The notes beneath the pieces are model-generated. The model saw only the letters and a list, made by a program, of their open reading frames with translations. It made no database searches and was not told where the DNA came from. Made by a program: the position numbers and the translations under genes. Shown here one piece after another: positions 20,637 through 29,502 of a DNA stretch of 64,000 bases (its first letter is position 1; each line of letters opens with the position of its first letter). The DNA comes from Nitrospiraceae bacterium (GTDB lineage: Bacteria; Nitrospirota; Nitrospiria; Nitrospirales; Nitrospiraceae), in contig JBFWWG010000009.1 of assembly GCA_050246315.1 (NCBI GenBank), positions 1 through 64,000 of the forward strand. Direction: 5' to 3'.

Positions 20637-21317
20637 TCACTCGAAGCATGGACCGATTTCGTTGCGCCCCTGCTCCACATAGAAGGCCGCCGCCTGGGAG
20701 CGCCGGGTAATACCGAGCTTGTCGTACATGTTCGCGAGATAGTTTTTGACGGTCTTCTCGCTCAAGTTCATCGTGACCGCGATTTCCTTGTTGGTCTTGC
20801 CTTGAGCCACGAGAGGGAGAATACGTTCTTCCTGAGGAGACAGGCGCCGGACGTTGGTGGTCGCTTGTTTGACGGCGCGATTCCGCAACCACGAGAGCGT
20901 TCGCTTGGCTACCGTGGGATCGAGCAGGGATTCTCCCGACGCGACGGACCGGATGGTCTCGACCAACGCAGTGGTCCGGATGTCCTTGAGTACATAGCCG
21001 TGCGCGCCGGCCAGGACGGCGGCGCGCACCGTGTCCTCGTCCGCATAGCTCGTGAGGAATAGCACGTGCGTCTGCGGGCAGGCCGACAGGATCTCCCGGC
21101 AGACGTCGATGCCGCTGCGGTCGGGTAGGCGGATGTCGAGTAAGACGACATCGGGCTGCACGCGCGCGGCTTCAGCCAACCCGCCGGCCGCAGTGTCCGA
21201 TGTTCCGACCACTCGGATGTCCGAGGCCAATTGGAGCACGCTCCGAATCCCGGCCAGGACGACCTCGTGATCATCGACGACGAGGACGGAGATGGCGCGC
21301 GGTTTGCCCTTATTCAT
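20637..21317 (-). CDS. NarL/LuxR-family response regulator (DevR-like)
   Basis: VVDDHEVV, LLDIRLPD, HTH GKTNKEIA...LSEKTVKNY. Confidence 0.95.
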   Translation of the reverse strand: MNKGKPRAISVLVVDDHEVVLAGIRSVLQLASDIRVVGTSDTAAGGLAEAARVQPDVVLLDIRLPDRSGIDVCREILSACPQTHVLFLTSYADEDTVRAAVLAGAHGYVLKDIRTTALVETIRSVASGESLLDPTVAKRTLSWLRNRAVKQATTNVRRLSPQEERILPLVAQGKTNKEIAVTMNLSEKTVKNYLANMYDKLGITRRSQAAAFYVEQGRNEIGPCFE

Positions 21318-24027
21318 GTGGACCTCTCTGCGGGAGTTCGATCACGACCCTGGTCCCGCTCCCGACGCGCGACCGCACGAGAATCCGACCGCCCATCCTC
21401 GACGCGCGCGCCGTCATATTCTTCAGGCCGAAGCCGGAGGGCTTGGTCGTTGCCGGATCGAAGCCCGAGCCGTTGTCTTGTATTTCGAGCCGGACTCCGC
21501 TGCGATGCCGGCGGAGGCCGATGCGCACCTCGCGGGCCCGTCCGTGCCGGATGGAATTACTGACCGCTTCGCGAGCCAGGTTCAACAGGTGCAGGCGTTG
21601 CTGCTGCGTGAGCGGCGCGACCGCCCGGAGAGACACCTGCACGGCAAATTGGGTCTGGCGGGAACTGCCATACACGGCGACCATGGACTTGAGCGCCTCT
21701 TTGAACCGGCCGCCTTCCAGCGAATCGAAGTGTAATCCGGTGATGAATCCACGCACTTCTTCGATCGTGCGGTTGAGTTGCGCGATCGAATGTACGAACT
21801 CTCGCTTGGCCTTGCGCGGAGCGACCTTCAGGAGTCGGCCGGCCGTATCGAGTCCCAGGCCGATGCCGTAGAGGGATTGCAGAATGCCATCATGCAGATC
21901 CTGGCTGAGCCGCTCGCGGTCCTCCAACGCGAGGCGCAGATTTTCTTCGCTCCGGCGGAGCGCCTGCTCACCGGCCCGACGCTCGGTGATGTCGGTGGCG
22001 ATGACAAGGACTTGATCGGCCACCCCGTGTTCGTTGATGAGCGGCCGTTTCACGGTCTGCAACCAGCGGACTTTCCCGGTCGAATCGGTGAGCGGCTCGT
22101 CTCGGATGAAGATCTCCGCTCCGGTGTCGAAGACGCGCAGATCCATGTCTCGGATGTGTGCCAGTTCCGTTCGGTTGAGGGTAAAGTCCGCGTCCGTTCG
22201 GCCCACCAACGATTCGACCGAGGTCCCATAGGCGTCGGCCACTGCTTGGTTGGCCAAGGTGAACCGACCATCCCGATCCTTGGCCAGGACAAAATTGGGA
22301 CTCAGATCGATGACCTGGCGGAGGAAGGCCCGCTGCTTGCGCAGGGAGGCTTCCGCCTCTTTGCGCGATGTAATTTCTTCGAGGATGCCGAAAATGCTCG
22401 TGATCCGGCCGTTCTGATCCCGGGAGACGGCGGGCCACAGGCTGAGATCGATCAGGCGTCCGTCCTTGCGTTGTCGCCGCAGCTCGATGCCCGGTTGAAG
22501 GAGTCCCGCGAGACCCTGCTCCCACATGGCATCGGCCTCATGTTCCATGCCGGACGGTACGTAGGGGAGTTCGCGTCCTAGGACTTCCTGTTCCGACCAT
22601 CCGAATATCCGTTCCGCCGCCGGATTCCATCGTATCACACGGCCCTGCTCATTCAGGCTCACGATGGCCAGGGGAGCGAGACGGACCAACGTTTCGAGTT
22701 GGTCGGTCGTGTTCCGCAATTGATCCTCGGCGCGCCGCCGTTCCGCCTCCGCCTGTTCGAATTCAGTCACGTCCCTGCAGTCGATGAGCGCGACGGGAGC
22801 ACCGGCGGCATCCTTGATGACACGCACCGTTTCCTCGACCCAGAGTTCCGTGCGGTCTTTCCTGATCTTTCGGAGCTTCCAGTGATGGATCTCGTGCGGA
22901 ACCTGAAAGGCTCGGGCCAACGCCGCTCCTGCAGGTCCCTGTTGGTCCTTGGGAAATACCTGGAGTACGGAACGGCCGATCAGCTCCTGCGGCTCGAATC
23001 CCAGTTGGTGGGCTCCGAATCGATTGACCGAGAGAACGGACCCGGTTTGGTCCACGGTGAAGTACATCGACGGCATGTCCTCGTACAGGGTCCGGAGCTG
23101 TTCTTCGCTGAGACGAAGCGCGGCGTTGGCGGACTCCAGTCGCTTGGTACGCTCGACCACTCTGGCTTCGAGTTCACGGTTCGTGCGGCGCAGTTCCTCC
23201 TCCGCGTTCGCGGCTGCCGTGATATCACGGGAGATGACGGCGATCGCCTCGACGGTTCCATCCGGGGCTCGAAGCGGAGAATAGCGCACCGCCATATATT
23301 TCCGGCCGATCGACCGGAAGGCAAACCAGGCATCATAGGCGACTTCTTCTCCCTTCAAGCACCGGTCGAGGTGGGGTTTGACCAGATTCGTAAACGTATC
23401 TTGACCTAGGACGTCGGCAACGTGGGCGCCGAGCACTCGTTCCTCCGGCATCCCATGTGCCAGCAGATACATGGGATTCACCCGCCTGTAGCGATAATCC
23501 GACCCGACGATCGAAATAAGGTCCGGCGCGATCTCCATAAGCCGCTGGGCGAAGCGGTGCTGGTCGTCCTGCTCCTTCCGTCGATGGGTGAGATCGCGGA
23601 AAACGCCGATCGCGCCGGCTCTGGCTCCGTTCCGATCGACGAGGGCGAACATCGAGACGTCGAGAGAAATCGTGCGTCCGCGCTTGGTCCGCGCCACGAT
23701 TTCGCCACGGAACTGATGGTCGTGCGCGAGACGCCGGCCCACGGCGGCGAAGGCCGGTTGGCCCATGAAGAGGGCGGGCGTGCGGCCGGACAGATCCTCA
23801 TCGGAATATTCGAGGAGGTCGGCATGGGCTGGATTCTGTTCCAGATACCGGTCTTGGTCGTCGAGCACGACCATCGGATCGATCGATTGGATGAACAGTG
23901 CACGGTACCGATCTCGGACGTCGGAGGGAGAGGGTTGCGAGAGGCGCTCTTCCAACTCAGCGATGCGGTTGCGGAGCCGGTGGACTTCGACGGCGAGCGG
24001 ATCCTCCACTGGCTGTGAAGGGGCCAT
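21310..24027 (-). CDS. Multi-PAS sensor histidine kinase, HisKA_3 (NarX-like)
   Basis: Several PAS repeats; ERLSQDLHDGILQSL; EAVSNSIRH; DNGSGF; GFGLKNM; ATG 24027 has AAGGGAG SD. Confidence 0.93.
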   Translation of the reverse strand: MAPSQPVEDPLAVEVHRLRNRIAELEERLSQPSPSDVRDRYRALFIQSIDPMVVLDDQDRYLEQNPAHADLLEYSDEDLSGRTPALFMGQPAFAAVGRRLAHDHQFRGEIVARTKRGRTISLDVSMFALVDRNGARAGAIGVFRDLTHRRKEQDDQHRFAQRLMEIAPDLISIVGSDYRYRRVNPMYLLAHGMPEERVLGAHVADVLGQDTFTNLVKPHLDRCLKGEEVAYDAWFAFRSIGRKYMAVRYSPLRAPDGTVEAIAVISRDITAAANAEEELRRTNRELEARVVERTKRLESANAALRLSEEQLRTLYEDMPSMYFTVDQTGSVLSVNRFGAHQLGFEPQELIGRSVLQVFPKDQQGPAGAALARAFQVPHEIHHWKLRKIRKDRTELWVEETVRVIKDAAGAPVALIDCRDVTEFEQAEAERRRAEDQLRNTTDQLETLVRLAPLAIVSLNEQGRVIRWNPAAERIFGWSEQEVLGRELPYVPSGMEHEADAMWEQGLAGLLQPGIELRRQRKDGRLIDLSLWPAVSRDQNGRITSIFGILEEITSRKEAEASLRKQRAFLRQVIDLSPNFVLAKDRDGRFTLANQAVADAYGTSVESLVGRTDADFTLNRTELAHIRDMDLRVFDTGAEIFIRDEPLTDSTGKVRWLQTVKRPLINEHGVADQVLVIATDITERRAGEQALRRSEENLRLALEDRERLSQDLHDGILQSLYGIGLGLDTAGRLLKVAPRKAKREFVHSIAQLNRTIEEVRGFITGLHFDSLEGGRFKEALKSMVAVYGSSRQTQFAVQVSLRAVAPLTQQQRLHLLNLAREAVSNSIRHGRAREVRIGLRRHRSGVRLEIQDNGSGFDPATTKPSGFGLKNMTARASRMGGRILVRSRVGSGTRVVIELPQRGPHE

Positions 24028-24216
24028 GGCTAACTCCCTTGCGATGGACGCTCGGGGCACCATCACGAGCGCCCCGGCGCTGGTTCGGGAACAGGGAGAG
24101 GGTGGACTATACCGGATGCGACGGTCAAGGTCGCCAGAGAGATTTGTCCCCAGCAATCTGTCCGAGCCATGGCGGCTGCTCCTGTCGCGAAGGCGGACCT
24201 GGACGGACTCCCCGGA

Positions 24217-24675
24217 TCAGTTGGAAAGGGGCGTCTCGAACGATTCGAGGATGGAGCTGGATGCCTGCCGGCAGATCCCGTGCCCGTCTTCCGTCGCCTT
24301 GGTGGCATACTCCTGCCGTACCACCTCGACGAATGTTTGGAGCTCGAATGGCTTCGCAATCGTGCGATGAAATCCGTTCGCGCCGTTCAGGTGAGGGGAG
24401 TACTCCGGCTCTGCTCGACCGGGGTCGCCCGAGAGGAGGATAAAACGGGCACGGGTCTGCGGGAATTCATGCTTGAATCGCTGGAGCGTGGTCGGCCCGT
24501 CCCACTCCGGCATGGACAGATCGAGCAAGACGACGTCAACCGCCTCGGTCCGGTAACGCTCGAGCGCCTCCCGTCCGGTCGAGGCCTCGTAGACCTGAAA
24601 TCCTTCCCGCTCCAGTGAGAACCGGATCAACCCTCGAAGTGGCTCCAGATCATCGACGATCAAGACGGAAGGCAT
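24217..24675 (-). CDS. Single-domain response regulator (CheY-like)
   Basis: VLIVDD, LLDLSMPEWDG, AKPF; ATG 24675 has AAGGAG SD. Confidence 0.9.
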   Translation of the reverse strand: MPSVLIVDDLEPLRGLIRFSLEREGFQVYEASTGREALERYRTEAVDVVLLDLSMPEWDGPTTLQRFKHEFPQTRARFILLSGDPGRAEPEYSPHLNGANGFHRTIAKPFELQTFVEVVRQEYATKATEDGHGICRQASSSILESFETPLSN

Positions 24676-24932
24676 CGCGCAATCGCTCCTTCGTCTGCAG
24701 GACCGGCGTGGCAATCCTCGACCACCGGCTTCCCCCGCAATGATGGCACTGTACCATCTTCGCAGGCGATCACGTAGGGAAAGAAGGCGGTGGCCGACGA
24801 AAGAAAATGGTCCTATTCCTTAGGGCACGGATGGAGTCGGGTTTGACTCTTGCGTGGCAAATCCCTAAGCTGCGAGACCAGTCTTTGATGCGCCACCGGC
24901 ACCGGAACGATCAATAAAGACGGGGATGAACG

Positions 24933-25709
24933 ATGATGAGGCTAAGAAAGGCAAAGGTAATTATACCCATGCTGCTCTTGGTTTGTACAGGGGGTTGTTC
25001 AAGCGGGCCGTCTCGAGGACCCTTCGGGCCGGACGACTCCGAGACAGCGATCACGAAAACTCCGTTGCCTGCCGTCGTTCCACCGGTGCATCGGCTTCAG
25101 TTCGACGATGCCGGCAATGGAGAGTTGATGAGGCCGCGTGGGGGAGGCCAACCTGGCGCCTCAATGGTCGCCTCGTCAAGCGCTGGCGCGGCGTCCGACG
25201 AAGAGGTCATCTCTCGCCTTCAGGCTGCGGCGCTGGCCGATCCACGGGTGCAGGCGGCGTTGGGCGACCGGTTCAGATTGATCGAGACCGACACGGTCGA
25301 GCCGAAATCATCGATGTCCGGATGTTGTCCCGCTCCCAGCCGTCCGAGCCGGCTGCTGTTTTACAGCTATGCGGCTAATACGAGCGTCGAGGTGTTGCTG
25401 CGGGAGGATCGAGTCATTGCCGTCACGCCGCAGCCCGGCTATCAGCCGTCTGAAACCGAAGAGGAAGTGGCGGAGGCCGTTTCCCTGGCGAAGCAAGATC
25501 GACGGTTGGCGGGCAAGGTGGACGGATTAGACGGGCATGGTCTCCTGACTCAGCCGGCGCGCGGGTGGTTGTGGGATGATGCCGGGCAAGGCCATCGCGT
25601 GATCTGGGTCACCTTTTCCAAAGGGCGGGAGGGGCGGCCGCTCTATGGGGCGCTCGTCGATCTGAGCGCCCACAAGGTCCTCAGTGCTCGCGAAGAACCA
25701 TCGAATTAA
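24933..25709 (+). CDS. Lipoprotein resembling the N-terminal (D2/D3) domains of copper amine oxidases
   Basis: Lipobox-like TGGC; YQPSETEEEVAEAVSLAKQD resembles the QP-x-T-x-EE helix of CAO D3; C-terminal ALVDLSAHKV. Confidence 0.65.
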   Translation: MMRLRKAKVIIPMLLLVCTGGCSSGPSRGPFGPDDSETAITKTPLPAVVPPVHRLQFDDAGNGELMRPRGGGQPGASMVASSSAGAASDEEVISRLQAAALADPRVQAALGDRFRLIETDTVEPKSSMSGCCPAPSRPSRLLFYSYAANTSVEVLLREDRVIAVTPQPGYQPSETEEEVAEAVSLAKQDRRLAGKVDGLDGHGLLTQPARGWLWDDAGQGHRVIWVTFSKGREGRPLYGALVDLSAHKVLSAREEPSN

Positions 25710-25718
25710 GGTGAACCC

Positions 25719-26705
25719 ATGAAACGAATCAAGATCGGCGTCATGGTCGCCATGGTGCTCGGGTTATCGTTGCTGCCGGGGGCTCAGGTCTCGGCGGAAC
25801 CGTCAAGCGGACATCTGGACTGGGAGTCGTGGGCGCTCGACTGGGAGGTCAACGGTACGACGGGGTTGGCACTGCGCCACGTTGCCTATCGGGGCGATCT
25901 CATTCTCGGCAAGGCCAGCATGCCGGTCCTGCGCGTCAAATACGACAAGGAGCGTGTCTGGTGGAATCCGTTTTCCTGGTTTGGATCGCGCGAGGAAACC
26001 GGCCGCTGCGGACCATTCCAGGACCGGCTCTCCTGGACCAACAGCATTCCGATTGCCGCTTGCGACGGCAAGAAGGTCTGTGCGAGGGAACATACCATCG
26101 ATGGCCTCAAGTGGCTGGAGCTGGGGATCTATGCGCGGATCGGAGAGTACCATATCTATCAAGCCTGGTACGTCTCGGCGGACGGCGAGATTCATCCGAT
26201 TGTGCAGAGCCGAGGCCTGTCCTGCGTCACCAATCATGTGCACCATCCCTATTGGCGTCTCGATTTTGACGTGGCCGGCCGGGGGTTGGACCAGGTCTTT
26301 GTTCGCAATGACGGGGCGCCGGATGAAGGCTGGGGGCCGGGCTGGCACAAGTATACGAATGAACTGAACACGTTCAAACAGGGTGCGACCAACCGTGTCT
26401 GGTTCGTGCGGGATTATCCGACCGGAAAGGGCGTCTGGGTGATGCCCGGATACGGCTATGAACCGATCAAGGATGACGGCGCGCGAGATGAGTTTTCGGA
26501 TCGGGATGTATCGATCAGGCGGGCCCGTGCGGACGAAGATCTACCCTGGATGTTTGGTGCAAGGGGAGATCTCGCTTATGATCAGGATCACGAAGGGGTT
26601 CAGGAGCAGGATATCCTGTTCTGGTATGTGGCGCATCTCGCCCATCCGGCGGCAATGGGTCCCACCGCCTGGCTGGCTGTCGGGCCTGTCATCCGCGTGC
26701 AGTAA
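25719..26705 (+). CDS. Exported copper-amine-oxidase-like catalytic (D4) domain protein
   Basis: Signal peptide; WESW...GLALRHVAY...KASMP; GEYHIYQAWY..DGEI; HVHHPYWRLDFDV; DILFWYVAHLAH. Confidence 0.75.
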   Translation: MKRIKIGVMVAMVLGLSLLPGAQVSAEPSSGHLDWESWALDWEVNGTTGLALRHVAYRGDLILGKASMPVLRVKYDKERVWWNPFSWFGSREETGRCGPFQDRLSWTNSIPIAACDGKKVCAREHTIDGLKWLELGIYARIGEYHIYQAWYVSADGEIHPIVQSRGLSCVTNHVHHPYWRLDFDVAGRGLDQVFVRNDGAPDEGWGPGWHKYTNELNTFKQGATNRVWFVRDYPTGKGVWVMPGYGYEPIKDDGARDEFSDRDVSIRRARADEDLPWMFGARGDLAYDQDHEGVQEQDILFWYVAHLAHPAAMGPTAWLAVGPVIRVQ

Positions 26706-26808
26706 TCACTTGTCCCTGCGGCGAAAAAGTACCGGAGGGGGCAAATGTCGCGTGATCTCTCCTCTTGGCGTCATAGCTCCCGTTCGATTAACGACTTGAA
26801 GTGCCAGG

Positions 26809-26930
26809 AGGACGTTCAAAAAGGCGGTCCAGCGAGGCCGCAGTGAGCGAAGGGTCGAGGCGCACTTGTCTCGGTGCGTTGAGGCCCTGAGCGATGCGAG
26901 AACAAAGCTGGCGGGTTTTTTCAACATCCT
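26809..26930. mobile_element. MITE-like repeat family 1, copy 2 (reverse orientation)
   Basis: AGGACGTTCAAAAAG ... TTTTTTCAACATCCT; reverse complement aligns with 142-267; lies between convergent genes beside CTAG 26933-26936. Confidence 0.8.
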
Positions 26931-26932
26931 CC

Positions 26933-27457
26933 CTAGGCGGCGGCCACCTTCAGCCCCACTTTCAGGGCTACCTTCGTCAGCGCGATCGCACCGTCCAGTA
27001 TGGCCGCTTTGCGTTTCTGCGAGCCTGTGTCCAGGACGGCCCGCTCCAGCAGTCGGTTGTATTCGTCCACATCGGCTTGGCTGAACGAGATCACCCTCTG
27101 CACCGTCGCATCGTAGGTGTTTGCCATGACCTGGTAGAGCTTAGCCCGGTGGGCGTGAAAGAGGCCCACGAGTTCGGGCTCGTCGCTGAACAGCATGATC
27201 TTCTTCCCATTCTCCCCGATTTCTTGCAGGATCTTCTCCTGGGTCGCTCGGATGTCCTCGTCCTTTTCGACGGCAAACTTGGTCTGACCCAAGTTCTTGA
27301 TCAGATCTTCCGTATCGCTGCGGGATACTTCCAGGCGGTTAGCGAGCTTCTGTAGCTCGCTGAAGGAACCCTCGCCGGCCTCCGCCACGTCCTTGATCAG
27401 TTTGTCGTTGCCTCTCATAAAGTTGACCACACCTTCGAGCGAGCGGGTGATGCTCAT
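26933..27457 (-). CDS. Hypothetical alpha-helical protein
   Basis: ORF 26933-27463; ATG 27457 preferred because GGAGG lies 7 nt upstream; no signal peptide, no recognised motif. Confidence 0.75.
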   Translation of the reverse strand: MSITRSLEGVVNFMRGNDKLIKDVAEAGEGSFSELQKLANRLEVSRSDTEDLIKNLGQTKFAVEKDEDIRATQEKILQEIGENGKKIMLFSDEPELVGLFHAHRAKLYQVMANTYDATVQRVISFSQADVDEYNRLLERAVLDTGSQKRKAAILDGAIALTKVALKVGLKVAAA

Positions 27458-27471
27458 GGCCATCCCTCCAT

Positions 27472-27785
27472 ACCAACCTTCGGTTGAACCGGCGGCTCAT
27501 CGGGCGCAGCCCTTCTTGATTAACGCCGCCGGAGACACACCGCCAGTGATTGAGTTGTTTCTGCTTTCACCAACCTTCGGTTGAACCGGCTCATCGGGCG
27601 CAGCCCTTCTTGATTAACGCCGCCGGAGACACACCGCCAGTGATTGAGTTGTTTCTGCTTTCACCAACCTTCGGTTGAACCGGCTCATCGGGCGAAGCCC
27701 CTCTATACCAAGCTACGCTTGTAGCGCGGGCTCTTCAGACCCAGCCTTCTTCATCGACGCCCGCGGAGAACTCCCTCCAGTGATT
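27472..27785 (-). repeat. Array 1 of structured ~78-nt repeat units (units 27707-27785, 27663-27706 half, 27569-27645, 27472-27551)
   Basis: Near-exact 94-97 nt tandem duplication plus a diverged unit; minus-strand consensus AATCACTGG...stem-hairpin-stem...GGTTCAA[CCGAAGG/GCGTAGC]TTGGT. Confidence 0.92.
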
Positions 27786-27795
27786 CGTCTTGTCC

Positions 27796-28497
27796 TCAAT
27801 CTTTCTTCATCCGCTCCAGCAGTTCGACTAAATCCATCGTCAGGGAGCGGGTGGATTCGAGTGTCCGTCCGCGCAGGAATGAGAAGTTCAGAGCTTCGTC
27901 CAGGGCGTCGTTCACGCTGCGGGAGGTTTGCAGCACCCTGGCGATCTGGTCGGACGAACCGGGCGCCTGTTCCGCCAACGCGGCGACGAACTGTGGGTCC
28001 ACGGAGGCGAACACCGATTGCTCGGCATAGCGACGGAGCTGTTGGTGCAGGGTCCCCAAGGATTTCCAGGAGTCGCCGAGCCTGGCCGCCACTTGCTGCA
28101 GGGCGCAAAAGTCCTCGTGGAACTGGTCGTTCACCCGCTTCTGCAGCCCCTCGTACTGAGCGAGATAGAGCGCGCCGAGCAGGTAGGCGGCCGAATGGGC
28201 GTCTTGCCCCCGCTTCTGCTCGATATTCCGATAGGAGGAAAACACGACATGGTGAACGGCTTCCACCTTCTGGAGTTCCTTTCCCGCAGCGTTGAGCTCC
28301 TCGAGCGCTTTCTGGAGATATCCAATCCGCTCGTCCGTCTGCTTCTCGAAGAGATTGATGTTGGTTTGAGCTCGATCGATCGTCGAGCCTTCTTTGTGGA
28401 TCAGCTCACGGACGGCTCCGCTGCGAATGGCCGAGCAGCCGGTGGCCAGGGCCAAGAGCGAAAGAGCCATGATGAGGGTGACGGATCGTGTCGGCAT
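27796..28497 (-). CDS. Hypothetical helical lipoprotein
   Basis: MPTRSVTLIMALSLLALATGC lipobox; AAGGGAG SD; coiled-coil-like composition. Confidence 0.8.
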   Translation of the reverse strand: MPTRSVTLIMALSLLALATGCSAIRSGAVRELIHKEGSTIDRAQTNINLFEKQTDERIGYLQKALEELNAAGKELQKVEAVHHVVFSSYRNIEQKRGQDAHSAAYLLGALYLAQYEGLQKRVNDQFHEDFCALQQVAARLGDSWKSLGTLHQQLRRYAEQSVFASVDPQFVAALAEQAPGSSDQIARVLQTSRSVNDALDEALNFSFLRGRTLESTRSLTMDLVELLERMKKD

Positions 28498-28526
28498 GGC
28501 AGTCTCCCTTCTCGTGATCGGCCTAC

Positions 28527-29168
28527 TCAACGGGCCGCCTTGACGGCTTCAGCCAGTTGTCTGATGTCGTCCGACTTCACGGTGACATCGATGTCCAAGT
28601 ATTCCTTTACCGTGGCGTTGATGCGGCGGAGCGCCGCGATGTTGGTCCGGTAATCGTCATAGGCACCGGTGTCGAGGGGGCGCACTAGGGCCTGGTAACT
28701 CTTTTCGACCGAGGCGTCGATCAAGGCAACCAAGCCGGGTAAGGCCTGCACAAGACCGCTCATCGTGCCCGTGCCTTTCGTGAAGACGGGCTGATTGTTC
28801 GGACCGGACCGTGCCGGCAACTCGGCCAATCGTATGTCGTTCACAAGCTTGACGACCTCAGGTCCCAACTCCTGTGCAGCCGTTTCCGCCCGGAGCTGCT
28901 GCTTCGCGGCCGCATCGGATGGAAAAGGATCGGTCGTGGCCCACTTCAATGCCAGGCTGAGTTTCAGTCGGGTTTCGATCAGTTGATGCCAGGATGCGAA
29001 CCGGTGGTTTACGTTCTCCAGCAGCTCCCGGTACTGCTCCATGAGCCGCGCGTTCTCTTGGTAGGCCTGGTCCTTTGCGACCAAGGCCTGTTTCACTTCG
29101 GGGGGTGTCGCGCATCCGGAGAGCAGGCCCAACAGAAGGCCGGCTGTGAATAGACGAGTGGGTGTCAT
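28527..29168 (-). CDS. Hypothetical helical lipoprotein
   Basis: MTPTRLFTAGLLLGLLSGC lipobox; GGAGG SD 6 nt upstream of ATG 29168. Confidence 0.8.
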   Translation of the reverse strand: MTPTRLFTAGLLLGLLSGCATPPEVKQALVAKDQAYQENARLMEQYRELLENVNHRFASWHQLIETRLKLSLALKWATTDPFPSDAAAKQQLRAETAAQELGPEVVKLVNDIRLAELPARSGPNNQPVFTKGTGTMSGLVQALPGLVALIDASVEKSYQALVRPLDTGAYDDYRTNIAALRRINATVKEYLDIDVTVKSDDIRQLAEAVKAAR

Positions 29169-29181
29169 AGTTGTCCTCCAT

Positions 29182-29502
29182 ACCAACCTTCGGTTGAACC
29201 GGCGGCTCATCGGGCGAAGCCCTTCTTCATTGTTGCCGCCGGGGACACACCGCCAGTGATTGAGTTGTTTCTGCTTTAACCAACCTTCGGTTGAACCGGC
29301 GGCTCATCGGGCGAAGTCCCTCTATACCAAGCTACGCTTGAACCGCGGGCTCTTCAGGCGCAGCCTTCTTCATCGACGCCCGCGGAGAAATTCCTCCAGT
29401 GATTCGCTGCTCTTCGTTTCTTGAAACCAAGCTACGCTTGAACCGCGCGCTCTTCATCGGTGTATCGAATCTGACGCGCGCGGAGAAACGCCACCAGTGA
29501 TT
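29182..29502 (-). repeat. Array 2 of structured ~78-nt repeat units (units 29426-29502, 29326-29404, 29279-29325 half, 29182-29261)
   Basis: Same consensus as array 1; three sequence variants with compensatory stem changes. Confidence 0.92.

Follow-up and report, generated by a model that had tools for sequence, protein, structure and literature searches.

Here, we report that two adjacent genes of a Nitrospiraceae bacterium (GenBank assembly GCA_050246315.1) encode a split, lipoprotein-tethered member of the copper amine oxidase (CAO) superfamily, in which the copper site and the quinone-forming tyrosine are retained. The pair lies within the first 64,000 nt of contig JBFWWG010000009.1, and this whole stretch is called the window below. 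Gene 1 encodes a lipoprotein with the fold of the CAO domains D2 and D3, and gene 2, which begins 9 nt further on (GGTGAACCC), encodes a secreted and trimmed version of the catalytic domain D4. On balance, we consider that the two proteins probably work as a lipoprotein-tethered, two-subunit periplasmic quinone/copper amine oxidase. A sequence-only reading of this DNA had proposed two exported proteins 9 nt apart with CAO landmark motifs; both open reading frames and the spacer are indeed present, and every motif that it quoted is found in the translations. Beyond that reading, the pair is widespread outside Nitrospira, and in Nitrospira it is accompanied by three more unannotated genes.

At the level of sequence, gene 2 matches the Pfam family PF01179 (copper amine oxidase, EC 1.4.3.21/22) with an E-value of 7.7e-6 and 25.5 bits, i.e., below the family cut-off of 27 bits, and the match covers residues 32–95 alone. 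Many relatives of gene 2 carry a precomputed PF01179 match; an NCBIfam scan of gene 2 gave nothing useful. Compared as a single sequence with PDB sequences, gene 2 shows three weak collinear stretches to AGAO (Arthrobacter globiformis phenylethylamine oxidase; PDB IDs include 1avk, 2cwt, and 3wa2), and a profile of 35 relatives reaches the same enzyme with an E-value of 3.2e-6, again in three collinear stretches. For the fold comparison, AlphaFold2 (AF2) models were searched with Foldseek and then compared with PDB entries by VIA. The gene 2 model has a predicted local distance difference test (pLDDT) value of 83.5 and a predicted template modeling score of 0.82. Its top 50 Foldseek matches are all CAOs (best E-value 1.4e-14), and in VIA residues 30–328 superpose on AGAO 235–614 with a Z of 27.9 and 2.8 Å root-mean-square deviation (rmsd) over 274 residues at 21% identity. 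This likeness is far beyond chance, and it bears out the catalytic domain of ~300 residues that had been proposed from the sequence. The D4 of gene 2 is ~80–100 residues shorter than those of AGAO and of ECAO (E. coli TynA; PDB IDs: 1oac, 1dyu); relative to TynA, ~90–100 residues are lost, in three main deletions. The N-terminus of gene 2, a hydrophobic helix (residues 2–17 in the model) followed by VSA/E, reads by eye as a Sec signal peptide.

The active site was followed across 254 unique sequences of gene 2 and its relatives (45–100% identity). When the gene 2 profile is aligned with AGAO, Tyr144 falls on Tyr382, the precursor of topaquinone (TPQ), and His173, His175, and His309 fall on the copper ligands His431, His433, and His592, respectively, so that the tyrosine and the candidate histidine ligands noticed in the sequence-only reading occupy homologous positions. 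The histidines are kept in 254/254, 253/254, and 251/251 sequences in the same order. Position 144 is Tyr in 249 of the 254 sequences and Gln in the other five, all of which also lack Asp102; these five are possibly one clade, and their double loss is then perhaps a single evolutionary event. Asp102 itself is kept in 247/254, and position 100 is aromatic in 253/254. To place Asp102, E. coli K-12 tynA was taken as the reference. The profile of an insertion-free clade aligns with TynA over 256 columns (E-value 0.0035, probability 9.4%) and sets the family Asp on ECAO Asp383, Tyr75 on Tyr369, and Tyr144 on residue 466, the Tyr of the TynA motif GNYDY. For the Nitrospira-clade profile, 273 columns are aligned (E-value 0.0024); this profile contains a lineage-specific insertion in the base region, and the two Asp residues are not paired. 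The residues flanking Tyr144 vary freely (E/Q/A/S/K before, H/R/D/E/Q after), and the E-Y-H motif that had been singled out in the window is the commonest one in the family (156/254). Since the family retains Tyr144, the candidate base Asp, and a Tyr at the position of ECAO Tyr369, ordinary TPQ chemistry offers the simplest interpretation, and the different cofactor that had been suggested from the sequence finds no support here.

Gene 1 belongs to no Pfam or NCBIfam family, and it has no match to the N2 or N3 families of Pfam. Its signal peptide ends in Gly21-Cys22, both conserved in ≥90% of the 32 relatives in which the lipobox was scored; this signal and that of gene 2 were read by eye. The AF2 model of gene 1 has a pLDDT of 73.2, with residues 86–254 confident and residues 1–87 poor, i.e., the N-terminal arm is of low pLDDT when gene 1 is modelled alone. 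The confident part comprises a pair of modules, in each of which a four-stranded sheet follows helices. Its top Foldseek matches are all CAOs, the same entries as for gene 2 (E-value 1.9e-6), and in VIA residues 86–258 correspond to AGAO 13–195 and ECAO 100–284 (Z 8.2–9.7, ~163 residues, rmsd 3.0–3.5 Å), with 42 CAO entries ranked before the first unrelated small domains (Z ≤6.3). The sequence-only reading had staked itself on CAO-like predicted folds and had placed the D2/D3-like part on a separate lipoprotein; both genes match CAO folds, and gene 1 is that lipoprotein. In AGAO, D2 comprises residues 9–91, D3 residues 103–203, and D4 residues 229–623, according to the available text of PMC12714705. 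From the aligned ranges and these boundaries it follows that gene 1 equals D2 plus D3, that gene 2 equals D4, and that the break lies in the D3–D4 linker. Please note that the D2/D3 assignment of gene 1 rests on fold and not on sequence, because the profile matches to TynA and to a single-chain paralogue (see below) are weak.

Two sets of loci were used to see how the genes occur elsewhere. One comprises contigs with one genome per species, the best 80 of 500 gene 2 relatives, all from organisms with Nitrospir- names except one Nitrosospira locus (L044); the other comprises metagenome loci found with a distant short clade as the seed, the best 80 of 171. The two sets partly overlap and were picked by gene 2 similarity, so that the 160 pooled loci are not independent samples. 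Linkage could be scored in the 132 loci whose sequence extends ≥800 nt upstream of gene 2, the other 28 ending at a contig edge. All 132, the distant soil clade included, have a gene 1 homologue as the immediate upstream neighbour of gene 2 in the same orientation, with a median gap of 18 nt between the hidden Markov model envelopes; the linkage in other genomes that had been anticipated from the sequence is seen in every locus scored. Of the full-length loci in other genomes of this family, 23 of 23 show the same arrangement. Among 301 genomes sampled from the phylum, 26 carry gene 2 relatives (the window's own genome counted), and these occur in one family alone (25/50 there, 0 in the other families sampled). 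In its own genome (4.39 Mb, 30 contigs, 100% complete), each of the two genes is present in one copy; a six-frame PF01179 search of this genome gave no match at E ≤0.001 and saw no canonical CAO, and gene 2 itself is missed by this search. Translational coupling of the two genes through the 9-nt spacer is probable. In one relative (G036:C1:439808-443879, loci L027/L029), gene 1 and gene 2 are both frameshifted, each matching in two frames, as if the pair had decayed together. In another (G162, L028), gene 2 is reduced to its last ~95 residues.

A model of the gene 1–gene 2 complex scored 0.87 (0.86–0.89 in three runs) against 0.00 for the best control, thereby passing a mark that 116 of 157 solved complexes but only 2 of 215 mismatched pairs attain. 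Contacts agree between runs by at least 63%, and the partner pLDDT is at least 73. The predicted interface brings gene 1 residues 169–179 and 202–211 against gene 2 residues 97–103 and 140–147, beside Asp102 and Tyr144. In AGAO, the active site is located at the boundary of D2, D3, and D4, and the channel entrance is formed by Phe105, Ala135, and Pro136 of D3 together with Leu358 of the other monomer, which closes the channel, as described in the available text of PMC12714705. By a rough linear mapping, the two gene 1 segments fall near Phe105 and Ala135/Pro136. The gene 1 arm (residues 31–80) touches gene 2 at residues 153–159, 194–209, 227–247, and 318–324 in the complex model.

The scheme that we infer, the stoichiometry of the subunits included, would run as follows. 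Gene 2 would be exported through its signal peptide to the periplasm, where it would fold as a trimmed D4 β-sandwich and bind one copper through His173, His175, and His309. It would then probably turn its own Tyr144 into a TPQ-type cofactor, with Asp102 as the catalytic base. The D2- and D3-like modules of gene 1 would dock where the active site opens, in the manner of D2 and D3 in single-chain CAOs, while the N-terminal arm of gene 1 would wrap around gene 2 and tether the enzyme to the membrane. The complex would oxidise a primary amine with O2, yielding an aldehyde, ammonia, and H2O2.

The solved CAO structures returned in our searches are all single chains of 617–740 residues. Compared with AGAO, the pair has the same D2-D3-D4 order, the same three copper histidines and TPQ tyrosine, and the same folds (Z 27.9 for D4 and about 8.5 for D2 plus D3). 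It differs in being two chains split in the D3–D4 linker, in contrast to one chain of 638 residues, in its D4 that is ~80 residues shorter, in having E-Y-H in place of N-Y-D, and in its lipid anchor, N-terminal arm, and two extra invariant histidines. TynA is periplasmic, as the pair is expected to be; it is collinear with gene 2 over 256–273 columns including Tyr369, TPQ466, the His ligands, and, with the insertion-free clade profile, Asp383, and its D2/D3 match gene 1 with Z 9.7. However, TynA is a single chain of 757 residues with an additional D1 domain, and tynA sits beside feaB and feaR, neighbours that the pair does not have. The CAO of Pichia, PPLO (PDB ID: 1n9e), resembles gene 2 in fold (Z 24.1). 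PPLO and the animal-type lysyl oxidases (LOX; PF01186, with a lysine tyrosylquinone cofactor) are copper-quinone amine oxidases acting outside the cytoplasm. The fold of animal-type LOX is unrelated to that of CAO, and neither gene 1 nor gene 2 matches PF01186, the LOX catalytic domain, at E-values up to 1. One Atlas cluster of relatives has automatically been named “lysyl oxidase family protein”; a protein-lysine substrate is without support here.

The family is not rare. An exhaustive search with the gene 1 profile finds 480 clusters (50% identity) at E ≤1e-3 and 330 at E ≤1e-10, most of 230–260 residues and nearly without annotation. None of the 148 best gene 1 representatives contains a gene 2 domain; in these proteins the D2/D3 module invariably sits at the C-terminus, in some cases preceded by Ig-like repeats or a subtilisin-like domain, as in four larger proteins (P0299, of 1071 residues, P0266, P0298, and P0226), the last with a tandem duplicate. 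A search for longer gene 2 relatives, which was made among long proteins and is weak evidence, gave two proteins (P0358, 642 residues; P0359, 627 residues); these and P0116 (474 residues) have D4 first, followed by C-terminal FG-GAP/VCBS or Ig-like repeats, and are without D2/D3. Such repeats suggest surface display of these relatives in other lineages. Single-chain paralogues are present in two genomes of the same family (L030:1483-3147, minus strand, 554 residues; L031:733-2352, plus strand, 539 residues). Unlike the pair, they are one chain each and have no visible signal peptide; they pass the PF01179 cut-off at 36 and 43 bits. Outside the gene 2 family, they are the nearest relatives of gene 2 in sequence (hhalign E-value 5e-30) and share with it the HxHH and HxxH histidine pattern and a CGP[FY]xD motif, and their N-terminal part matches the gene 1 profile weakly (E-values 0.0033, with 9.6% probability, and 0.0027). 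At the copper site, both carry four consecutive His (HHHH), and their Tyr is embedded in W-Y-R; in L031 the next gene encodes a protein with DUF2278 and a lamin-tail domain. The literature searched, with most subscription journals outside its scope, gave no account of this gene pair or of any CAO that is split or made of two subunits. Two candidate sources were set aside: the available text of a CuAO “tree of life” (PMC12058724) covers plants and animals only, and PMC6452851 concerns true LOX in Nitrospira nitrosa, a different family.

Several observations weigh against the reading as a two-subunit amine oxidase. The N-Y-D/E consensus is not kept (E-Y-H in the window, N-Y-D in 1/254), and Asn381 is drawn among the active-site residues of AGAO in the available text of PMC12714705. 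Neither AGAO nor ECAO has an equivalent of His176 (248/254) or His306 (252/252). The genes adjoining the pair include no aldehyde dehydrogenase, amine transporter, or peroxidase. Asp102 is likely the catalytic base, an assignment that rests on one low-probability alignment and with which the Nitrospira-clade alignment disagrees. The dimer and the substrate channel may differ from those of AGAO, given the shortened D4; the gene 1 profile matches TynA weakly (E-value 0.052 over 28 columns); and the complex pass may reflect the memory that the model has of solved single-chain CAO structures, which does not prove binding. Some of these observations would be explained if the same two-subunit copper protein performed other chemistry, with Tyr144 not forming TPQ or forming another cross-linked cofactor, and with a substrate other than a primary amine. 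We regard this as unlikely, though as the main rival. In that case an altered or second metal site would be formed by His176 and His306, perhaps with the invariant Cys97 and Cys169 as well, and it is in keeping with this that the two histidines are conserved like copper ligands, that the Tyr flanks are free to vary with the canonical Asn in 1 of 254 sequences, and that no amine-catabolic genes are nearby. By eye, the L030/L031 paralogues also keep Cys at positions matching Cys97, Cys121, and Cys169, which, if right, speaks against a purely disulfide role. What argues for TPQ is that the residues defining it (Tyr144, Asp102, and Tyr75) are kept, and that the Tyr and the Asp are lost together. 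In addition, PDB entry 7wir is titled as the “holo form” of the AGAO N381A mutant, and this title suggests that the Asn is not required for cofactor formation.

It is very improbable that the pair is a non-catalytic remnant, i.e., a copper-binding, structural, or adhesive envelope protein that has kept the CAO fold alone. The absence of a known activity, the Pfam score of gene 2 under the cut-off, and the Ig-like, FG-GAP, or protease modules of some relatives, which are typical of surface proteins, would fit such a protein; however, the near-total conservation of the three copper histidines, the Tyr, and the Asp across the 254 sequences points to a working active site. We give the least credence, hardly any, to the absence of a complex, with gene 1 as an independent lipoprotein that is merely co-operonic with gene 2. 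The weak sequence similarity of gene 1 to CAO N-domains and the possible model memory mentioned above leave room for it, against which stand the linkage in 132/132 loci, the 9-nt spacer, the apparent decay of both genes together in G036, and a D2/D3 fold match of gene 1 that was obtained independently of gene 2. The two-subunit amine oxidase with TPQ is accordingly the reading that we prefer. A more far-reaching proposal, which we consider rather unlikely, is that the pair founds a widespread two-subunit class of copper enzymes in which the CAO scaffold is reused for a new chemistry or kind of substrate. In one version, the cofactor or metal site would be reshaped by His176 and His306; in another, the enzyme would act on amines of envelope macromolecules, e.g., lysines in the helical lipoproteins that are encoded alongside. 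Such a function would encompass the lipid anchor, the N-terminal arm, the lack of dimer arms, and the three syntenic genes of no assigned family.

The natural split at the D3–D4 linker means that D2/D3 and D4 are separable modules, and it defines a catalytic core of ~300 residues that is useful for quinone-cofactor enzymology, evolution, and enzyme engineering, in a gene pair family whose partner subunit is unannotated. If the preferred reading is true, nitrifiers with such a periplasmic enzyme would draw ammonia from amines in addition to urea and cyanate, either for assimilation or for feeding ammonia oxidisers.

Table 1. Features of the gene pair and its neighbours; positions are those of the window.
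Feature	Position	Strand	Description	Basis
Gene 1	24933..25709	+	258-aa lipoprotein, D2+D3-like subunit of split CAO	Open reading frame, fold
Signal peptide and lipobox of gene 1	24933..24998	+	Cys22 presumed lipidated	Read by eye
N-terminal arm of gene 1, residues 29-80	25017..25172	+	Conserved GPFGPxDxET...K..LP..P..H.L.F; predicted to wrap gene 2	
D2-like module of gene 1, residues 86-167	25188..25433	+	Helices, then four-stranded sheet	
D3-like module of gene 1, residues 171-258	25443..25706	+	Invariant P172, E174, G201, L205, P208	
Spacer GGTGAACCC	25710..25718	+	9 nt, after TAA stop of gene 1, Shine-Dalgarno-like GGTGA	
Gene 2	25719..26705	+	328-aa secreted minimal D4 catalytic subunit	Open reading frame, fold
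Tyr75 codon	25941..25943	+	Equivalent to ECAO Tyr369	hhalign; kept in at least 90% of Nitrospira-clade alignment
Asp102 codon	26022..26024	+	Candidate catalytic base (ECAO Asp383, AGAO Asp298)	Kept in 247/254
Tyr144 codon	26148..26150	+	Equivalent to TPQ precursor Tyr (AGAO 382, ECAO 466)	Alignments; kept in 249/254
His173-Val-His175-His176	26235..26246	+	His173 and His175, H-x-H copper ligands (AGAO 431, 433); His176, extra conserved His	
His306-Leu-Ala-His309	26634..26645	+	His309, third copper ligand (AGAO 592); His306, extra invariant His	
176-aa protein	26933..27463	-	33-43% identical to gene directly upstream of gene 1 in L038, L059, L145	
244-aa helical lipoprotein-like protein	27796..28530	-	48-50% identical to second gene upstream in L038, L059, L145	
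227-aa lipoprotein-like protein	28527..29210	-	47-54% identical to third gene upstream in L145, L059	

Three further genes (Table 1, last rows), none with a significant Pfam or NCBIfam family, lie beyond gene 2 in the window. In loci of the N. defluvii type, their homologues are directly upstream of gene 1 and co-oriented with it. Of the 160 loci, 81 show the order 227, 244, 176, gene 1, gene 2 and 6 show the inverted form of the window, and one inversion of the pair would explain the arrangement in the window. In 52 of the 160 loci the pair occurs without the three genes, including five (L105, L108, L112, L114, L118) with 4 kb upstream. The link of these genes to the enzyme is by synteny only. 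Outside Nitrospira, the neighbour genes have no conserved function in common, and the other neighbours vary by lineage. In two N. defluvii-type loci, a LuxR-type regulator with an autoinducer-binding domain is encoded just downstream of the pair (L038:5152-6030, L145:5151-5945), followed by a 430-aa unknown gene and a ketoacyl synthase. Upstream of gene 1 and divergent from it (21310–24714, minus strand) are a receiver-domain protein and a 948-aa multi-PAS histidine kinase. The receiver gene is not a conserved part of the system, because it adjoins the pair in only 8 of ~190 loci, and L001, L002, and L022 among these eight represent the window itself. When positions 24100–27600 were scanned for promoters and terminators, only two promoter-like sites emerged, each on the minus strand; terminator-like sites numbered two, where 2.2 would arise by chance.

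Contigs from four RNA-labelled runs of four studies (X1, X2, X6, X8), 150–430 nt long and mostly of at least 99% likeness, lie over both genes. None spans the gene 1–gene 2 junction by 31 nt to each side, and carried-over DNA is a possible source; these contigs show neither expression nor co-transcription of the pair. In the available part of PMC11327836, an amine oxidase is reported as encoded and transcribed by its Nitrospira metagenome-assembled genomes. Its Table S3 lists NOB01_19_62, which is on a contig of a close relative, the one bearing a 98%-identical copy (L033), and may be the same gene.

A short intergenic element with CCAACCTTCGGTTGAACCGG is present five times in the window (27465–27700 and 29183–29300), where chance predicts 0 copies. 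A tandem array of three lies between the 176- and 244-aa genes, and the other two are found at the far end of the 227-aa gene. Contigs of the RNA libraries accumulate on the element, with a depth of 568 in X2 and loose ends in all four runs; the depth spike at 27465–27515 is neither a tRNA nor an Rfam family. The element may have mediated the local inversion.

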